DNA from: Saccostrea cucullata
Lineage: Eukaryota
Length of the DNA stretch: 60,996 bases
NCBI RefSeq assembly: GCF_032062105.1
Contig: NW_026924749.1
Span: 186,001-246,996, forward strand
Reading direction: 5' to 3'
Of this stretch, positions 51,552 through 60,996 are shown piece after piece. A model generated the notes under the pieces. The model had not been told where the DNA came from. It saw only the letters and a program-made list of their open reading frames with translations, and searched no databases. The position numbers were made by a program, and so were the translations under genes. The first letter of the stretch is position 1, and each line of letters opens with the position of its first letter.

Positions 51552-52557
51552 TACCCTTGAATTGGACCATTTTGAGGTATTTCTGTTGAAAATAGAGAAA
51601 TGCGTCACAGTAATGACATCATATTTGCAGAATGGTAACCATTTATGGCATATTCTTTCCTGATTTATGTCATATACTTAACTAATATTAAGCCAGTTTC
51701 AAAACTGTTTGATGGCAATACATTTTTAGGGCATAATAAAGCTAAAACCAATAAAACCATACCTTCCTCTTTATTAAATACTAAAGATTTTTTTTACTAC
51801 TATGCTTATCGTGCAGAAAGAAAATGTATAAAAAAGAAAAAAGTGCAATGGTAGTTTTCACTCCAGCACATATGAGATTATATTCGGTAAATAATTTGAG
51901 TTGCAGACAAAATACGAGATGCTTTGGAGTACATATATGTTTGAATAGGCATTTCATAAACACCTGATTGAGCTTGTCTTTATTTCTGGAATAAACACCC
52001 CGAGGATTTTTTTTTTTAAAAACTTACACTAACGTCATAATTAAAATTTTAGCATTGTAGCAAATATATGACTATGATGAAGTAAAAAAAGAAAATTAAA
52101 TTAATGCGTTTGATTTGCGAAAATATAATTTTGGAATTTAAAGGACATATAAAATGTACGATATGTCAACAATGAAATTCGCTAGACAGCATACAACCTA
52201 TTTTCATTCATACTTTGATGGGAAAACATAATTGATAAATAGAAAACTTGTTTCATGCTGACAAGGATGAATAAATATAATCATTTTGTGTGGGCATTTC
52301 CTTTGCTGAACATGAACAAAATTAAAAAGTTGTAAGTTAAGCATTAATTGTCATAAAATGCGTTTTTATTCCATCTAAAATTACGCAAAATTATTAATAA
52401 CTTTGCACTTTTGTACCACGTGAACAAATTGGTCACGACGACCCACCCTATGAGTTTCTCTAATATGTATGTTTAATGAAAATGACCTCTGATAGTTCAA
52501 AATAAATCTTAGATAAAAAAAAATAGAAGTAAAAACAAAAATAAACTTCAAATACTT

Positions 52558-52825
52558 TTATGTAACCCTAGTGATCAGGCTAGACTACCGCAATAGTTGA
52601 AATATAACAAACAATGTATACTGAGTGAGAATTGTCATTTATTAAATGACAATAAGTATATAACACATATAAAGTTAAGGGGAGATCACCGGGATATTTC
52701 CTGAGTAAAAAGAACAATAAATTTGGCAACGGTATCTCCCCTGTTGCAAACAAACATTACTTTGGCAAAAATATTTTGACAAATAAAAAGTATATAAACC
52801 ACAAAGTTGTCAAAACAAAAAGCTG
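52558..52825 (-). repeat. Split direct repeat B2 (268 bp)
   Basis: Matches 53175-53442 (offset 617) with 2 mismatches seen. Confidence 0.95.
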
Positions 52826-52954
52826 ACATGACAAAAGTTGCAACGATGGCAATTAAGATGGCACAAGGTATATATTATGAAAAAGAAAAAATACAAAACA
52901 TAATTTTGAGACTACAATATTTTATCATGGAGTATGAAGGGGGACGGAGGGTGG

Positions 52955-53176
52955 GTAAATTTCTAAAAACAAATTTGTGAATTTCTTGGCACTTCTAAAT
53001 CAGTGAAAAGACGCTATCTTGTGTCACGTGATTTGCATAAGCGTTACGATTGGATAATTACAACTTTTTACTAAAGGAGACAGCTAATAACACAATAAGA
53101 CTCAAACAAACATGAAAATTGAACTACATTACATCATAGATTACATAAAGGCTATTATTTACAATAATGCTGTATT
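52955..53176 (-). repeat. Split direct repeat A2 (222 bp)
   Basis: Matches 59367-59588 (offset 6412) with 4 mismatches seen. Confidence 0.95.
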
Positions 53177-53442
53177 ATGTAACCCTAGTGATCTGGCTAG
53201 ACTACCGCAATAGTTGAAATATAACAAACAATGTATACTGAGTGAGAATTGTCATTTATTAAATGACAATAAGTATATAACACATATAAAGTTAAGGGGA
53301 GATCACCGGGATATTTCCTGAGTACAAAGAACAATAAATTTGGCAACGGTATCTCCCCTGTTGCAAACAAACATTACTTTGGCAAAAATATTTTGACAAA
53401 TAAAAAGTATATAAACCACAAAGTTGTCAAAACAAAAAGCTG
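53175..53442 (-). repeat. Split direct repeat B1
   Basis: Copy of 52558-52825; abuts A2, sharing TT. Confidence 0.95.
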
Positions 53443-53519
53443 CCACCAAAAGCAAACTGCTATGAAAAGCTGTTTGCAAAAAACACAAGGCCAAAACAGG
53501 TGGACTAGCCAGATCAACA

Positions 53520-53708
53520 AAATCAGGCAGTCTACAGAACATTATATCTATATACAAAATCTTACAGTCTACACAGCATTATAACAACACAAAATCATAC
53601 AGTCTACACAGCATTATAACAACACAAAATCATACAGTGTATATAGCATAATAAGCATATAATAACCTTAAATCATACAGTCTATGCAGCATTATTATAC
53701 AACACAAA
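53520..53708. repeat. Minisatellite of about 35 bp, about 5 copies, in the Ngaro 3' region
   Basis: AAATCATACAGTCTACACAGCATTATAACAACAC and variants. Confidence 0.85.
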
Positions 53709-53937
53709 CAATAAAATGAGCAAGGCTCAGAATGTCAAGTACAATGGAGTAGCAACATATTGAAAGTTATTACTAATACATAAATGAACAAAAATTACAA
53801 ATCATTTGGTTCAAAACATGATGGTGAAACATGAACCAGTAGGCACAGTTTGTGTTATAAGTGGTAAGAAAGAAAATTATTTTAAAACAAATGTATCTAA
53901 TTATATTAAAAATGGTATGAGGAAAAAACAGAATGTT

Positions 53938-54098
53938 TACCCAGCAGTTTACTTCTGTCCTGAGCAAGCTTTGTATGTAAAAATTTTAAAAGTATGCACT
54001 GACACAGCAGTTTACTTCTGCCCTGTGTATTTAGGCGTGAGGCAAAATTAGAAAGACTGATTAGGAAAATTACATAGCAGTTTACTTCTGACCTATGT
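53938..54098 (-). repeat. Three dispersed bulged-hairpin repeats downstream of YR
   Basis: Invariant core CAGAAGTAAACTGCT (- strand) within 53938-53966, 54002-54028, 54072-54098, with differing but complementary outer stems. Confidence 0.85.
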
Positions 54099-54176
54099 GA
54101 CAATATCTAACCATAGGGACTTACAGGACTAGATTCGAATTCACAGAGCAGTTTTGGAATGCTTTCAAATAACATA

Positions 54177-55155
54177 TTAAATAACGAAGCTCTGTAAACG
54201 GATATATCTCCGTACAGCATCTGAATTCCACCTGCCCATTTTCTGTATGCAATTCTCAGAAAAACCTTGCTGGGCTGCATGAGTTGCAGCTCCTATGCGA
54301 AAGCTATGACCTTTATATAGGGCAGGGTTTAAACCAATGAACAAAACTGTGTTGTGTAAATTTTTTGAAACAAATGCATAAGGAACTGGGTCACCTCCCA
54401 TAAATTGGAAGAGGGGACCAGACTGGTGATTAAAGGCTTGAAGATAGAGATATAATGCCGAAACCAGGGCACATGTCACTGTTGTCCAATGCTCTCAGGT
54501 GAATCTGGAAAAGGTCTTTTTTCTTATTTGTTTTGAAATTTTTCAGTAAAAGGACAACTGCAGAGGGGGAGTTGTTTGAAAATTCAAAAGAAACCTCTTC
54601 TCGTTGAATGACCGTGTTTAACGAACCTTTTGTTTTTACTACAAGTTCACCCAAGCGTAAAAAGGCATTAAATGCCAACAGAAAAATAGCCTTTAACATG
54701 ATTCTATAGTGTAGATTTTGCACAGATTTTTGTAAACCGCAAACTAAGTTATGTAGAATGGGGCCCGTTATTGGTAACCTGGTGTCTTTGTTAGGAGCCG
54801 AACGGTGACATCCCTGCATTATTTTCCGGACCAAAAATGCATCTGATGGATCTGAGAGACCAAGAATTTTATGTAGATAGCTTATGGCTGATATATGAGA
54901 TGATATGCTACTAGGGGAATAACCTATGGTAAAGAGGTGAGCAATGAAGTTCGCTGTCACTGAAGAGGAAATTGGTAGCGAGGTCACAGTGGGGTTGAAC
55001 TGTAGCAACAAATCCCAGCTTCTTTTGTAGGCAGACTTGGTGGTGTTGGACAAGGCTGCTGACAGAAGGTGGTGTGCTTGCTGACTCAAATTGCCAATGA
55101 CTTCAGTGGTATTTGGGTCTGTTGTTGGTTTAGATGAGGCATGGAATTGAATGCA
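54177..55155 (-). pseudogene. Tyrosine recombinase (YR) of the Ngaro element, broken by a 1-bp insertion
   Basis: AFLRLGE, KNFKT, GHSFRIGAAT, GRWNSDAVRRYIR (R-K-H-R-W-Y residues present). Frames 55089-54430 and 54479-54177 join as CPVSALYLYL if one base at about 54464 is removed. Confidence 0.92.
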
Positions 55156-56837
55156 GCCTGAAAATTAAAACGAGATAAGTGATCAGCAGCTATGTTGTGC
55201 TTCCCTGGGATGTGTTTCGCTCTGAAATGCACATTGTATCTTAGGGTTGACAATACCAGACGACGTATCAACCTCATGATGACCTTCTCTTTTGACGTTT
55301 GTTTATTGATAATTTGTACAACTGCTAAATTATCTGACATAAAGAGAACTTTTTTGTTTCTAAACTTATCTCCCCAAATCTCTATTGCTATTACAATTGG
55401 AAATAATTCTTTAATGGCTATTTGATATTCTGCCATGTCATCTTTCCAACGTGATGCAAACCATTCAGAACCCAAGATGGCTGCAAACCCTATTGATCCC
55501 GCCGCATCAGTAAAGAGAGTAAGGTGATCAGACGATAACCATTTTTGGGGCAGAAAAACAGATTTCCCATTGAATGTTTCGAGAAAGGTAAGCCAAGTGT
55601 TTATGTCTTCTTTTGTCTCTTCTGTGAGTTCAATCAACTCGTGAGGCTTTGAAACCCCACAGGTTAGGTCAATTAAACGTCTAAGGAAAGCCCTACCTGG
55701 GATAACAATCGAGCATGCAAAATTGAGCAATCCTATTAAAGACTGTAGATCACGTAATGTGCTACGCGTTTTGTTTTTCATTTCTCCAAGGTTTTTTCTT
55801 ATTTTTTCTACTTTCACAGGAGGTAGACGTGCCTCCATTTTGACCGAGTCAACTTCTATGCCATAGATAGTGATTTTGGTAGTGGGGGGTTGAGTTTTTG
55901 ACATTTTAATGGGTACCCCAATTTTTTTGCAAAGGAAAAGAAAATTTGTGAGATCATTCTTGCAATTGTCCGAGCCAGCTGGCCCAATGAAGAAGAAATC
56001 ATCAAGGATATGTGACATACCTCCAGCTTGATATCTGAATTGCATTATCCACTGTAATGCAACACTAAGTTGTTCAAAAATTTGACAGGAACTACTAGCC
56101 CCCATAGGCAAACATTTATCAAAGTAAAATTGGCCTTGCCATGAAAAACCCAATAAATGGTAGTCACTGGGATTGACTGGGATAATTCTAAAAGCGTCCT
56201 GAATATCTGTTTTTACCATCAGACAATAAGCTCCATTCTGTTGGACAAGATGTATTACTAGGTCGATGGAGTCATATTGCACAACTGAATTTTCTTTTGG
56301 GATATTTATATTGACTGAATTGTCTCGGGGATAAGATAAGTCATGAATAATTCTGAATTGACCGGGTTCAGATTTAGGAACCACCCCCAAAGGGGATGAT
56401 ATGAAAGGATCAAAAGGAGGGCAAGGAAAGGGGCCTGCAATACGATTAAGTTCTAAGCTTTTGTGGATATGTGCATCTATGATATCACCATGACTTAATG
56501 CTGATGAATGGTTTTTGGACAAACGTGCAGTTGGAGTAGTGCTACAACCCAAAGAGAAACCAAATTTGAAACCTTCTACTAACAGTTGTTTTAGGTTTTT
56601 GTCATAACCCTCTAATTCTTCACTAAGTTTGTTTGGATTTACTGGCGTGGGAAGTGCGTGACTCTGCAGATTGTTGAGACCTACATTTGTGTTTTGGGTG
56701 TTGTCCCCTGCATATTTGACAGATGTGTGTGAAGGGACATGGTGTGGTTTTACATTTGTCACCTTGGTTAAAGGCGAAGCAGAATTTTGTTCTCCCCGCC
56801 TGTTTGGTACGAAAGGGCTGACTGTAAGGGGCAGGTT
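55086..56837 (-). CDS. Pol ORF (reverse transcriptase plus RNase H), uninterrupted, no early AUG
   Basis: SPLGVVPK, FRIIHDLS, KTDIQDAFR, LPMGASSSC, HILDDFF; RNase H LFTDAAG, IKELFPI, SDNLAVV, ADHLSR. Frame is open from 56837 (after TAA 56840-56838) and overlaps the gag 3' end in the +1 frame. Confidence 0.95.
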   Translation of the reverse strand, partial: NLPLTVSPFVPNRRGEQNSASPLTKVTNVKPHHVPSHTSVKYAGDNTQNTNVGLNNLQSHALPTPVNPNKLSEELEGYDKNLKQLLVEGFKFGFSLGCSTTPTARLSKNHSSALSHGDIIDAHIHKSLELNRIAGPFPCPPFDPFISSPLGVVPKSEPGQFRIIHDLSYPRDNSVNINIPKENSVVQYDSIDLVIHLVQQNGAYCLMVKTDIQDAFRIIPVNPSDYHLLGFSWQGQFYFDKCLPMGASSSCQIFEQLSVALQWIMQFRYQAGGMSHILDDFFFIGPAGSDNCKNDLTNFLFLCKKIGVPIKMSKTQPPTTKITIYGIEVDSVKMEARLPPVKVEKIRKNLGEMKNKTRSTLRDLQSLIGLLNFACSIVIPGRAFLRRLIDLTCGVSKPHELIELTEETKEDINTWLTFLETFNGKSVFLPQKWLSSDHLTLFTDAAGSIGFAAILGSEWFASRWKDDMAEYQIAIKELFPIVIAIEIWGDKFRNKKVLFMSDNLAVVQIINKQTSKEKVIMRLIRRLVLSTLRYNVHFRAKHIPGKHNIAADHLSRFNFQAAFNSMPHLNQQQTQIPLKSLAI

Positions 56838-57819
56838 TTAACGTAATGCATTTTCCCCTCAATTCTTCGACCGGTTTTTGCCAGGGAAGTTCAGCTGTTT
56901 CTTTTAGTTTTCTGAAGGATTCATCATAAGCCCTCCAGGCTGAATCGCCATGTAGTTTGTGAAGTTCCCTAACAAAACTCATGTACTTTAATAGGTGAGG
57001 GGCCTCTGATGGGTCTTTTTCAATTTTAATGCAAATAAAGACCAAAAAGGCATCAGTCCACTGATTAATTGATAAGGGATTTTTTGTTTTTGGATTCTGT
57101 TGCAAGTTGATCACACCTGGTGATATTAACAAAGTAAGAGGGTTTTCCTCATGGTGCGGCAAAAGACACCGTAAATCAATGAATTCATTTGACCAAACTT
57201 TGGATTTTACCTTAGCTGATATGGCCGCACCAAGAGGAATCCCGTCAGTTACAGAAATGAAAGATTTATCTTTGTTTAAGCTAGATGAAACTGTGCCCAC
57301 TGGCTCACCTTCATTTGTCCCAAAAATTTGAGAAACCAATGATGACACTGTCACATCTGTGGATGAGTTGTTTGCATATGTAGATGTGCTCTGACTTGTT
57401 GTGGCAGGCATTTGTTGTGTGGCATTGCTTGAGGTAGATGTGCTCAGACTTGTTATGGCAGGCATTTGTTGTGTGGTATTGCTTGAGGCATTTTGAATTA
57501 CTGCTGGCGCTGGCTCTTGTACCGGGGCAGTTGGCAATTGTGCAGCTGTCAGAAGCGTTGGTTGAGTTAGTACTGTCTCATTACTGACATTATTTGTTAC
57601 TGGTGGCACTGAAATTGTGGCACTAGCAGATGAACTGGTTGCTCTTTGTTGTTTCAGAATTTCTTCCGCCAGTTTCTGATAGTCAATTTCTTGCACGGAA
57701 ACTGTCTTCTGTCTTTTCCGGGTGACTGTGTTGCTAGGCGTTGCTGCCTGTGGATCCCCTTGGGCTGCTGCTGCCTGTGGATCCCCTTGGGCTGCTGCTG
57801 CCTTTCTCCGTTTAGGCAT
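56623..57819 (-). CDS. Gag-like protein of the Ngaro element, 398 aa
   Basis: Low-complexity N-half with internal duplications, KVWSNEFIDLRCLL, INQWTDAF, AWRAYDESFR, and C-terminal Cys/His finger CFAFNQGDKCKTTPCPFTHICQICRGQHPKHKC. Confidence 0.9.
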   Translation of the reverse strand: MPKRRKAAAAQGDPQAAAAQGDPQAATPSNTVTRKRQKTVSVQEIDYQKLAEEILKQQRATSSSASATISVPPVTNNVSNETVLTQPTLLTAAQLPTAPVQEPAPAVIQNASSNTTQQMPAITSLSTSTSSNATQQMPATTSQSTSTYANNSSTDVTVSSLVSQIFGTNEGEPVGTVSSSLNKDKSFISVTDGIPLGAAISAKVKSKVWSNEFIDLRCLLPHHEENPLTLLISPGVINLQQNPKTKNPLSINQWTDAFLVFICIKIEKDPSEAPHLLKYMSFVRELHKLHGDSAWRAYDESFRKLKETAELPWQKPVEELRGKCITLKPAPYSQPFRTKQAGRTKFCFAFNQGDKCKTTPCPFTHICQICRGQHPKHKCRSQQSAESRTSHASKSKQT

Positions 57820-57885
57820 GATCTACATTCTTATTGCATACAAGGATTCAGGAACCGACACACTATTTTTACAAAAATAGTAATA

Positions 57886-58494
57886 GCACACTACTCTGCG
57901 TGTGTTTGAGTATTATATCTCTAAGGGCACACTACTCTGCGTGTGTACAAGTTTTGTGTCTATATAACTTATAAAGGCACACTACTCTGCGTGTGTCTGT
58001 CTATTATTATTATATAAGGGCACACTTCTCTGTGTGCAACTGAATATTATGTGTATAGGTAAGGAAATATTACTCCGTATGATGTCCAATTGTTATGTCA
58101 ATATAATATTACACTACTTTGCGTGTTTCATTTTCCATGTCACTACAGTAAAAAGAAGCACACTACTCTGTGTGAGAAATCAAGGGCACACTACTCTGCG
58201 TGTGACTGAATCGGGGCACACTACTCTGCGTGTAACTGATCGGGGCACACTACTCTGCGTGTGACTGAATCGGGGCACACTACTCTGCGTGCGTCTAAAT
58301 CAGGGCACATATCTCTGCCTGTGTTTAAATAGGGGCACACTACTCAGCGTGTGACTTACCCAAATGACAAAAACAAAGCACAAAATTTCATGAGCGACTC
58401 TTACCTGACATTATTGTAAAAGAGAATGTACTAAACTATATGTTTGACATATACTTAATATTTTTCTTGAAAATTCACACTACTCTGCGTGTGT
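57886..58494 (-). repeat. Array of about 14 short hairpin-forming repeats with variable spacers between the hydrolase and gag
   Basis: CACACTACTCTGCGTG (+) or variants start at 57887, 57928, 57978, 58021, about 58066 (degenerate), 58110, 58159, 58187, 58217, 58246, 58276, 58306, 58336, 58476. Confidence 0.95.
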
Positions 58495-58570
58495 CTTTGT
58501 GGAATCAATTCATTTCTCACATAACACTCTATCAAAGAAAAGTATGTTTTAAATCATAGCATTACTTGCA

Positions 58571-58604
<34 letters not shown>

Positions 58605-58615
58605 TAGTAACATAC

Positions 58616-59200
58616 TCATCTTGAATGTTGCAGTACTGCAATTCTAATACTATGCATATATTTCTTCATATGCCTGGAGTCACCCTCAATATGAACTCCA
58701 TCACGTCCCAGGTAGGACAGGTCCGCCCAAAATCCCCTGTGTGGCCAAAAATACACACCGTCTACTTTCCCTATTTCCTCTTTCAAAAGATTGTTCACTT
58801 TTACCACATCCTCGTTAAACTTGACACGAGAAGCCCATGGCTGACGGCGTAATAACTGTCCAACAATTACAGTTTTTATTCCAACACCATCGCGCAAGTA
58901 TTGTGCATACGAAATTAAGTCCGTACATACTTTCCGAGGATTGTTTAGACTCAAGTCATTACTGCCCATCTGTATAAAACAAATATCGGGGGGTGCGTCA
59001 AACCGTAGAAATTCTGCACAGTGGGCTAGACGTTTGAATGTGAAACCACCGCGTGATCTGAAATCCACTTTGAAGGAGTCCATATCCAAATTTAAATTAG
59101 TCCTAAGATCACTTGCATCTATAAATTCTTTCAAACGGCGGATATAAGAATGTCCTAAGATGCACACAGTTCGAATGTTTACTTCGGGTTCGGCCGCCAT
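58616..59200 (-). CDS. SGNH/GDSL-type hydrolase (esterase) encoded by the Ngaro element, 194 aa from the AUG
   Basis: Block I ILGHSY, block II RGG, block III QMGSNDL, block V DGVH; first AUG at 59200 (MAAEPEV). Confidence 0.9.
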   Translation of the reverse strand: MAAEPEVNIRTVCILGHSYIRRLKEFIDASDLRTNLNLDMDSFKVDFRSRGGFTFKRLAHCAEFLRFDAPPDICFIQMGSNDLSLNNPRKVCTDLISYAQYLRDGVGIKTVIVGQLLRRQPWASRVKFNEDVVKVNNLLKEEIGKVDGVYFWPHRGFWADLSYLGRDGVHIEGDSRHMKKYMHSIRIAVLQHSR

Positions 59201-59366
59201 TGCGTAACCCTGTTTTGCTGGACGGAGCCTGTCTATCCCTGGGACAAAAACACTCAAAAATCCACAAATCACTTACTTTACACTGATGTAATCTTGTTTT
59301 GTAGTCTTCGGATTGGTAAAACAATGCAATAAATTCGTAAAAAACGATAAAAACACTCCTGAAGAC

Positions 59367-59588
59367 GTAAATTTCTAAAAACAAATTTGTGAATTTCTTG
59401 GCACTTCTAAATCAGTGAAAAGACGCTATCTTGTGTCACGTGATTTGAATAAGCGTTACGATTGGATAATTACAACTTTTTCCTAAAGGAGACAGCTAAT
59501 GACACAATAAGACTCAAACAAACATGAAAGTTGAACTACATTACATCATAGATTACATAAAGGCTATTATTTACAATAATGCTGTATT
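59367..59588 (-). repeat. Split direct repeat A1 (5' end of element)
   Basis: Copy of 52955-53176. Confidence 0.95.
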
Positions 59589-60996
59589 TTGTTTTATTCA
59601 AAATTTACCTTTTGATACTTCTTAACTTAGAGCTAACCTTTTCACAAAGAGTAATATTTAAGTGCAGTGAATGGTGGACCCGGAATATCTTTTTAATGAT
59701 TGCTTTATTTTTTGTTCCTTTTTTAGATAATTTTCAGAATTTACATTAAAAAAAAAAGAAATAAAACTTATTTACATTTGTATAGTTTATTGTGTTATGA
59801 ATCTACGGTTATTTTGACTGCACTCATATTGGGAAATATGGATTGTTGAGCTTCCTCCATACAATGACAAAGATGTCCTTAGAAAATTTTCTCTGTATGC
59901 AAGACACAGGATCATTATTCGTCTTACCATTTAAAGAGATTTAAAGTTTTTTTTTCGACAAGACAGCGTTCGTAGTAAATTTAGAAAGAAAAAACCCACG
60001 CAGTATAAAATAAAATTCGCTAATTTTACTGTTACATGTATACATGTACATGTATATTTTTACAATTTTGATGCGATTTAAATATTCTTCAATTGTTTTA
60101 CAAAGAATGTTAAAAAATATAAACATTTATTCTTACCGAAAACTATTAAATGTCACACATTATAGCTAACAATATCATTGTGTTTTGTAGATTAAATTTT
60201 GTTGATATTCCATATATCGGTAATACACGTTTTTACGACTTGTTCCTGTAAATTTGTACATGTTACAAATATTATTGAAATAATTTTCTCGTGTACATGT
60301 TTTTCTACAAATCGGCTACAGAGTGTTGGATTTAAATGTTTTAAGTTTTCTTTTGATTATATACATGTACATAAGAAAGAAAGAAATCTAAAGAGTTAGA
60401 ATATAACATTACATTTGTAATCAAAAGAATTTTCGAAGTTGAGGTTATTGAAAAACCCTGTAACATCATTTATCTCTTCGAAATCAGTTCTAGGCAATTA
60501 AACCTCTTTCACTAGACCTGCGTGCCAGTGAAGGTCTAAATTCGAAAACCCTAGAAGAGGTATACGAGTCAAAATTTCTTGATCGAGATGTAAAACAACA
60601 TTAATTTTCGAAAAAGTAAAAAAAAAAACTACTGATTTTTCATATTTTCTAAAAACTTCTTTGAAGTTTTGAGAATCCATGTATGATTTAGACTTTTATA
60701 GCACAGCGCGTCTGGATTTTTGGCCTTTACAGTTGTTAATCATTTTTTGATTTGTAAAAATCAAAGGTTTTGCAGAGCATTTGTTGGACCAAGCAAGACA
60801 CCATTTCGTTGACTGGAATATTAAAAAGTTATTTAAGGCAGAAACGAAGGTTGTATCAAAGAAATTAATGATTATCATGTAAAAGGTGAACTGTGAATAT
60901 ATACGTATCGTATTTGAGATGCAGATGCAGATTCAAAACCCTGTTTCTTTGAAATACAGTTGTTTTAATTAGTTTTAACATCAAATATGATATAAT

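Follow-up and report, generated by a model that had tools for sequence, protein, structure and literature searches.

A Ngaro-like element on the minus strand of the window

The window (the whole stretch of DNA analyzed here, 60,996 nucleotides from Saccostrea cucullata) carries a retrotransposon that is, by its layout, Ngaro-like and a member of the DIRS order (Table 1). Its split direct repeats are arranged as A1-[ORFs]-B1-A2-B2, the layout that defines Ngaro-like elements in the available portions of the published descriptions (10.1101/2021.08.05.455354, PMC8547959), and many siblings are built alike. The element further resembles Ngaro elements, as excerpts of the literature present them (10.1101/2021.08.05.455354, PMC8547959, PMC6681497, PMC7192593), in its gag-like, reverse transcriptase (RT)/RNase H and tyrosine recombinase (YR) frames, which are all present and overlap, in its SGNH frame, and in showing no methyltransferase frame: the five frames scanned at E ≤ 0.1 gave no Pfam match to a methyltransferase domain, an absence that separates the host element from DIRS-like and PAT-like elements.

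The YR frame, which in siblings is a single frame of 328 amino acids, gave weak Cre matches (E of about 0.003). The gag-like frame had no Pfam match, and its C terminus carries CCCH and CCHC-like fingers (two). The SGNH frame contains GHS, GSND, and DGVH motifs, and its catalytic set looks intact. It precedes gag in the window copy, the siblings, and the metagenome relatives, whereas it follows YR in amphibian Ngaro elements as described in the published excerpts; since an SGNH frame is optional in Ngaro elements, its position is only a variant. Two noncoding hairpin arrays and a spliced Gag-YR fusion also set the element apart from described Ngaro elements, both being absent from the published descriptions in the portions consulted. 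The RT frame of the window copy has no early Met; the frame step between gag and RT is identical in 24 of 24 elements, and no conserved acceptor for an RT-specific splice was found among these 24 near-intact elements.

TABLE 1 Features of the element and their positions in the window
Feature	Position	Strand	Remarks
Ngaro-like element, 7.0 kb	52558-59592	-	order A1-SGNH-gag-RT-YR-B1-A2-B2
Split direct repeat A1	59367..59592	-	221/226 identical to A2
Intron 1 region	57827..59276	-	holds SGNH frame and 5′ array; donor at 59276
SGNH/GDSL hydrolase frame, 218 aa	58616..59272	-	5′ of gag; Pfam below cutoff, E 8e-5
5′ hairpin array	57880..58495	-	inside intron 1; about 10 good copies of CACAC-GCAGAGUA-GUGUG
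gag-like frame	56623..57822	-	ATG at 57819; basic N terminus
Intron 2, GT-AG	55158..57308	-	reads, contigs, frame arithmetic
RT/RNase H frame, 583 aa	55086..56837	-	
YR gene	54177..55164	-	frame disrupted near 54460 in window copy
Bulged hairpin 1	54070..54100	-	first past YR stop; lower-stem U-A variant; model 33.5 bits
Bulged hairpin 2	54000..54030	-	GG bulge; model 31.8 bits
Bulged hairpin 3	53937..53967	-	one private G-U pair; model 28.8 bits
35-bp tandem repeat	53517..53654	.	between hairpins and B1; siblings differ in copy number
Split direct repeat B1	53175..53445	-	268/271 identical to B2
Split direct repeat A2	52955..53180	-	repeat comparison
Split direct repeat B2	52558..52828	-	repeat comparison

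Three bulged hairpins downstream of the YR gene

Three hairpin units lie 3′ of YR on the sense strand of the element (the minus strand of the window), 450 to 600 nt upstream of B1 and about 1,400 nt from the element end. An exact 15-mer occurs three times in this region, a count reached in none of 100 shuffles, so that the three units, which a sequence-only reading of the window had placed here, exist beyond chance; a covariance model also found all three (E of 6e-7 to 1e-5). The fold drawn in that reading, with a 2-nt bulge, was recovered for two of the units when they were folded alone as RNA (unit 53937, -9.2 kcal/mol and z of -2.2; unit 54070, -5.6 kcal/mol and z of -1.5), whereas for the middle unit (54000, whose bulge is GG) a fold with two 1-nt bulges is favored. 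In a context of 281 nt, the minimum free energy structure lacked the hairpins (z of +0.99), and the partition function left only the first unit well populated in the window copy (0.4 to 0.8), with the third near 0; the folds predicted in context for the window copy are marginal.

In the first unit, the replacement of C-G by U-A, which had been read as compensatory, is real and occurs in two siblings as well (L002 and L003). Both G-U pairs that had been pointed out can be seen, but one of them is private to the window copy, as is the GG bulge: the siblings and all RNA reads that cover this place have an A-U pair at the private G-U site and another base in the bulge.

Conservation and covariation of the hairpin in related families

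Relatives were sought by DNA search, pattern search, and YR protein search (151 matches from 150 of 1,567 candidates scored), and 80 genome stretches of at most 9.9 kb each were picked to span the families. In related families, the 2-nt 5′ bulge, the G-C pair beneath it, and CAG/CUG above it are fixed. Among 176 distinct CAG-N5..10-CTG sites within 700 nt after YR in the 80 loci, 71 pair at four or more of five positions with a 2-nt 5′ bulge. In nine other registers, the same 176 sites gave 1 to 4 such cases; coding DNA had 1 among 195, and the DNA farther downstream none among 66.

The sequence-only reading had suggested building a covariance model and searching siblings and Rfam. An alignment was made of the 67 hairpins whose loop measures 7 nt, every such site in 17 elements being taken (2 more of the 19 elements given had none) without a filter on the lower stem. 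It has 82% of its cells paired, versus 67% after shuffling and 22 to 53% in slid-register controls. Its lower stem clearly covaries, with 127 two-sided changes versus 54 in shuffled alignments, a value that none of 500 shuffles reached (the shuffle ignores relatedness). RNAalifold returned the same fold for this alignment and added a covarying pair at the base of the loop (A-U in 29, U-A in 14, and C-G in 5 of the 67 hairpins, with 19 unpaired), where the window family has A.A. CAG/CUG is invariant in the alignment because the search pattern demands it; outside the pattern, neighboring lineages have CAG/UUG or CAA/UUG. These sequence comparisons strongly support the conservation of a single-strand structure. 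The Rfam search did not yield a known family: a scan of positions 52400 to 59700 up to an E value of 5 gave five chance-level matches, none on the hairpins, and no family (including IRE, SECIS, and ribozymes) reached its gathering score.

Bulge size, inner stem, and loop had all been taken as fixed. For the 2-nt bulge and CAG/CUG, this extends to related families, but the loop is constant only inside the window family and is otherwise the least conserved part, with 56 distinct 3′ loops. The bulge reads GU in 50 of 101 cases and UU in 21 of 101, its first base being mostly G. Domain 5 of group II introns has an AC bulge; a domain 5-like structure on the antisense strand was considered and rejected, as the bulge letters vary.

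In all lineages examined, the YR stop is immediately followed by a hairpin array on its 3′ side. Distant lineages of the same genome have other bulged or capped hairpins at this place, in 2 to 6 copies with a median of 4 (35 representatives), and at least six different hairpin shapes coexist in one genome. In several lineages (F2, L067), some copies have broken lower stems. The motif classes cluster by element lineage on RT, YR, Gag, and SGNH trees (FastTree or quick trees; classes assigned by eye, near-duplicate loci excluded). All four trees fit the classes about equally, with 12 to 17 changes, and therefore none of the proteins is singled out as the reader of the hairpins; tree incongruence was rejected as a route to the reader.

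In metagenome contigs, a YR alignment search gave 80 loci, and many of the elements have the order SGNH-gag-RT-YR. The covariance model found 40 matches at E ≤ 2, most of them weak (6 of the 40 at E ≤ 0.013). All but two of the 40 (38) are on the sense strand, no more than about 740 nt beyond YR, and they come from 18 of the 80 loci. A folding repeat with three or more copies follows YR in 34 of 49 metagenome loci (54 of the 80 were given and 5 were too short; this count is without a shuffled control). Both branches of the deepest RT split contain the CAG/CUG form, which is therefore either old or convergent.

RNA or DNA as the folded molecule

The sequence-only reading had also pointed to G-U pairs that work only on the sense strand. 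This argument fails in the lower stems, where wobbles are unbiased (37 G-U versus 26 A-C, p = 0.21; 30 versus 23 in distinct stems, p = 0.41). Judged by energy, 31 of 35 representatives fold better on the sense strand, but only 19 of 35 do by z-score. A wide energy gap is limited to distant lineages whose G-U pairs are fixed: family-wide G-U pairs in L133, L140, L142, L147, L139, and L144 favor the sense strand by 3 to 7 kcal/mol, and there is no gap in the window family. We consider it quite likely that the hairpin fold acts in RNA. Of the earlier claim of a functional RNA element, the conserved single-strand structure is the part that stands strongly, and the choice of RNA over single-stranded DNA stays at likely.

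Folded attC sites carry arms of the form RYYYAAC/GTTRRRY, and no such arms are visible in the units. A role in single-stranded cDNA, where the recombinase would bind the folded hairpins like attC sites, would agree with the single-stranded cDNA stated for DIRS-1 in the accessible part of one source (PMC7192593) and with the window family, in which antisense folds as well as sense and A-C is as common as G-U in the lower stems. The sense-strand preference of the distant lineages speaks against it, as does the location of the array, which is not at the A/B junction and is distant from the element ends, formed by A and B; we regard this reading as improbable. Hardly credible is a role as double-stranded DNA sites (for a transcription factor or as a recombinase arm) or an origin as neutral repeats. 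CAG-N7-CTG is a spaced palindrome, and some families carry the units within tandem repeats, but the flanking arms differ between copies inside one element and yet pair, always at a 2-nt offset, and the spacer between CAG and CTG is not constant, ranging from 5 to 10.

Transcripts and splicing of the element

Of three poly(A) runs, one has RNA reads over the hairpins, at a depth of about 10 per mate direction. Since these reads have sibling alleles, the signal comes from siblings and not from the window copy, and since the libraries look unstranded, the strand is known from intron orientation alone. Reads from close siblings contain two GT-AG joints on the minus strand. Removal of intron 2 fuses Gag codons 1 to 170 in frame to YR; this joint is covered by 6 and 4 reads and one contig on the window and by 8 and 4 reads and two contigs on sibling L058, and a phase-1 acceptor is present at its site in 21 of 24 near-intact elements. 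Intron 1, which on L058 spans 6520-8266 (4 reads, two contigs), takes out SGNH and the entire 5′ array, and because both sit within it, they occur only on intron-retaining RNA. The 3′ hairpins, in turn, are on every isoform seen. One contig (X1 record 2) links gag by way of the intron 2 joint to YR and continues over the hairpins as far as the start of B1. Contig depth, a rough measure only, is 50 to 60 over YR and the 3′ region versus 3 to 16 over RT.

The window copy is without an inner GT-AG intron of 305 nt that L058 and L059 have (at 57826/57827). Because this intron is missing precisely, the window copy must have been made from partly spliced RNA, and the intron 1 acceptor used by the siblings is gone from it. 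L108 and L125 show precise loss of the 2,160-nt intron 2, and L125 has, in addition, a nonsplice rearrangement in the intron 1 region. Copies made from spliced RNA (the window copy and L108, whose termini are perfect) kept both arrays. No copy with a precise loss of intron 1 was seen with our detector, which is insensitive and missed or failed to flag known splice cases. L148 and L161 were rejected as splice losses, being ordinary deletions without GT-AG ends. L172 and L173 are deletion derivatives that lack both arrays and have one common insertion site; L168 and L169 likewise share one, and with a single site each, neither pair shows independent movement.

Loops of the 5′ and 3′ arrays

Most families (L060-L167) own a 5′ array of simple stem-loops, in 2 to 16 copies, and its loops are lineage specific (e.g., GGACCAUA, CAGUAU, and UAUAUGGUU). 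The motif of this array differs from that of the 3′ hairpins. The sequence-only reading had seen an AGUA core common to the loops of both arrays and had proposed that one protein might bind both ends of the RNA through it. AGUA does occur in both loops of the window family and of its sister family F2. However, only 2 of the 56 distinct 3′ loops contain it, and over 24 elements it is found in the 5′ loop of five, in a 3′ copy of five, and in both in only two, so that it is decoupled both ways (L109 and L110 have it only 5′, L108 and L122 only 3′). Over the same 24 elements, the 5′ and 3′ loops do not covary, their matched likeness being 2.76 versus 2.69 ± 0.13 when permuted (p = 0.29; loop extraction was automatic and is imprecise in a few rows), and the covariance model of the 3′ hairpin has no match in the 5′ array at E ≤ 5. 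On the loop counts, the model search, and the permutation, the shared AGUA core was rejected. With mRNAs moreover losing the 5′ array by splicing, binding of one protein to both RNA ends through such a loop is very improbable; a single protein with two distinct RNA-binding surfaces is possible.

A possible row of docking sites for an element protein

The 3′ units represent a bulged hairpin that recurs across the lineage in the 3′ untranslated region and is carried on spliced RNA. Because the fold is kept while the loop is free, the pairs around the bulge are fixed, and the copies are several and lineage specific, we infer a co-evolving element protein as their reader, which would recognize the bulge and the fixed pairs around it and not the loop. 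The reader is probably encoded by the element, since the form of the motif goes with the element lineage even within a single host genome. Judged from the sequences, there is nearly an even chance that a protein of the element, with Gag or Gag-YR as the leading candidates, docks along the row of 3′ hairpins. Somewhat more tentatively, Gag or Gag-YR may read them with the basic peptide at the N terminus or with the zinc fingers and so load the recombinase on the RNA to be copied. The two proteins share the basic N terminus, and a Lys/Arg-rich stretch lies at or near the gag start where this was recoverable (24 near-intact elements); docking of either would bring a separately translated recombinase onto RNA destined for copying. 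The basic Gag N terminus may also be only a nuclear localization signal, and the Gag-N part could by itself be enough to carry YR into particles, with no need for RNA.

Since spliced mRNAs carry the 3′ array too, it cannot alone select genomic RNA. Genome selection would fall to the unrelated 5′ array within intron 1, which is a candidate genome-selection signal. A fuller scheme, which we hold to be doubtful, is a two-address code in which the intronic 5′ array marks the genome, about four 3′ hairpins load the Gag-recombinase, perhaps as a whole tetramer, and hairpin and reader co-evolve by lineage; that the median of four copies matches a recombinase tetramer is speculation. Were this scheme true, a tyrosine recombinase would reach its DNA substrate by binding the RNA template.

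Two known systems offer partial parallels to these roles. HIV-1 TAR is a bulged hairpin read by a basic arginine-rich peptide, and according to the consulted part of the source (PMC7864049), it has, like the 3′ hairpins, a small 5′ bulge, a short upper stem, an A-U pair second above the bulge, and a loop of 6 to 7 nt; a basic peptide is available here at the Gag N terminus, so that the two are alike in how they might work, as an analogy only (PMC7864049). TAR has a bulge U for its U.A-U triple and a G-C pair directly above, whereas the first bulge base here is mostly G (with the GU and UU counts given above), the pair above is C-G, the loop is variable, and the hairpins stand 3′ and in several copies. 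The retroviral Psi is likewise a structured cis-element on retroelement RNA, and in Rous sarcoma virus (RSV) spliced as well as unspliced RNA carries it, so that another signal is believed to be required in addition, as stated in the available portion of the source (PMC5035971). The 3′ array has no sequence likeness to Psi. The 3′ array is on the spliced Gag-YR transcript, whereas the 5′ array in intron 1 occurs only on intron-retaining RNA and is the better analogue of a packaging signal.

Other readers of the array have to be weighed. One possibility is that the reverse transcriptase binds the hairpins close to the 3′ end of the RNA, much as in stringent LINEs, whose 3′ untranslated region has a short bulged stem-loop. 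The geometry of the hairpins resembles the LINE consensus (a loop of 5 to 7 nt with a bulge 4 to 6 bp away), and deletion of the bulge blocks the eel element, according to the excerpted source (PMC5135761); the motif is kept across the deepest RT split, and the start of reverse transcription in DIRS-order elements is stated to be unknown in the part of the review consulted (PMC7192593). The host element is, however, a YR-integrating element and no LINE, its hairpins come in 2 to 6 dispersed copies with a free loop, unlike the stem-loop of the LINE source as excerpted (PMC5135761), and the array sits far from the 3′ end and on an abundant Gag-YR mRNA without RT, which makes docking of RT unlikely. 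Rather less likely still is a host RNA-binding protein that reads the array to export, stabilize, or protect element mRNAs. The presence of the array on all isoforms seen would suit such a protein, as would the start of both arrays right after a stop codon (that of YR for the 3′ array) and the recurrence of the CAG/CUG form in other hosts, represented by the metagenome contigs, but the many shapes within one genome follow element lineage, and no Rfam family was found at gathering score.

Docking of Gag or Gag-YR on the 3′ hairpins would bear on a step for which the texts retrieved hold little: full-text searches returned, in the portions consulted, no description of such hairpin arrays or of a Gag-YR splice in Ngaro elements (PMC9341512 included; Repbase, the Poulter reviews, and supplements were outside their scope) and no account of RNA choice or recombinase recruitment by DIRS-order elements. 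New here are the test against a shared loop, the RNA support for both splices, and the assignment of the two arrays to different isoforms. The analysis yields a defined 31-nt covarying motif together with natural lineage-specific variants, and the RNA-supported splicing map separates two candidate signals. If a reader is found, orthogonal hairpin/protein pairs from many families could be used as RNA tags.

Other repeats in the window and its relatives

The B repeats contain a 23-nt near-perfect palindrome (53248-53270 and 52631-52653), and the word AATAAATGACA recurs at the place of this palindrome in distant families. Many pieces of the window family in L182-L185 and L175-L180 are solo B or B1-A2-B2 copies, 88 to 99% identical and without hairpins. 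The metagenome contig L264 has two SGNH-gag-RT units in tandem at 1542-11064, possibly a head-to-tail or permuted insertion. Elsewhere in the window, positions 7745-9616 hold a tandem repeat of 166 bp in about 11 copies.
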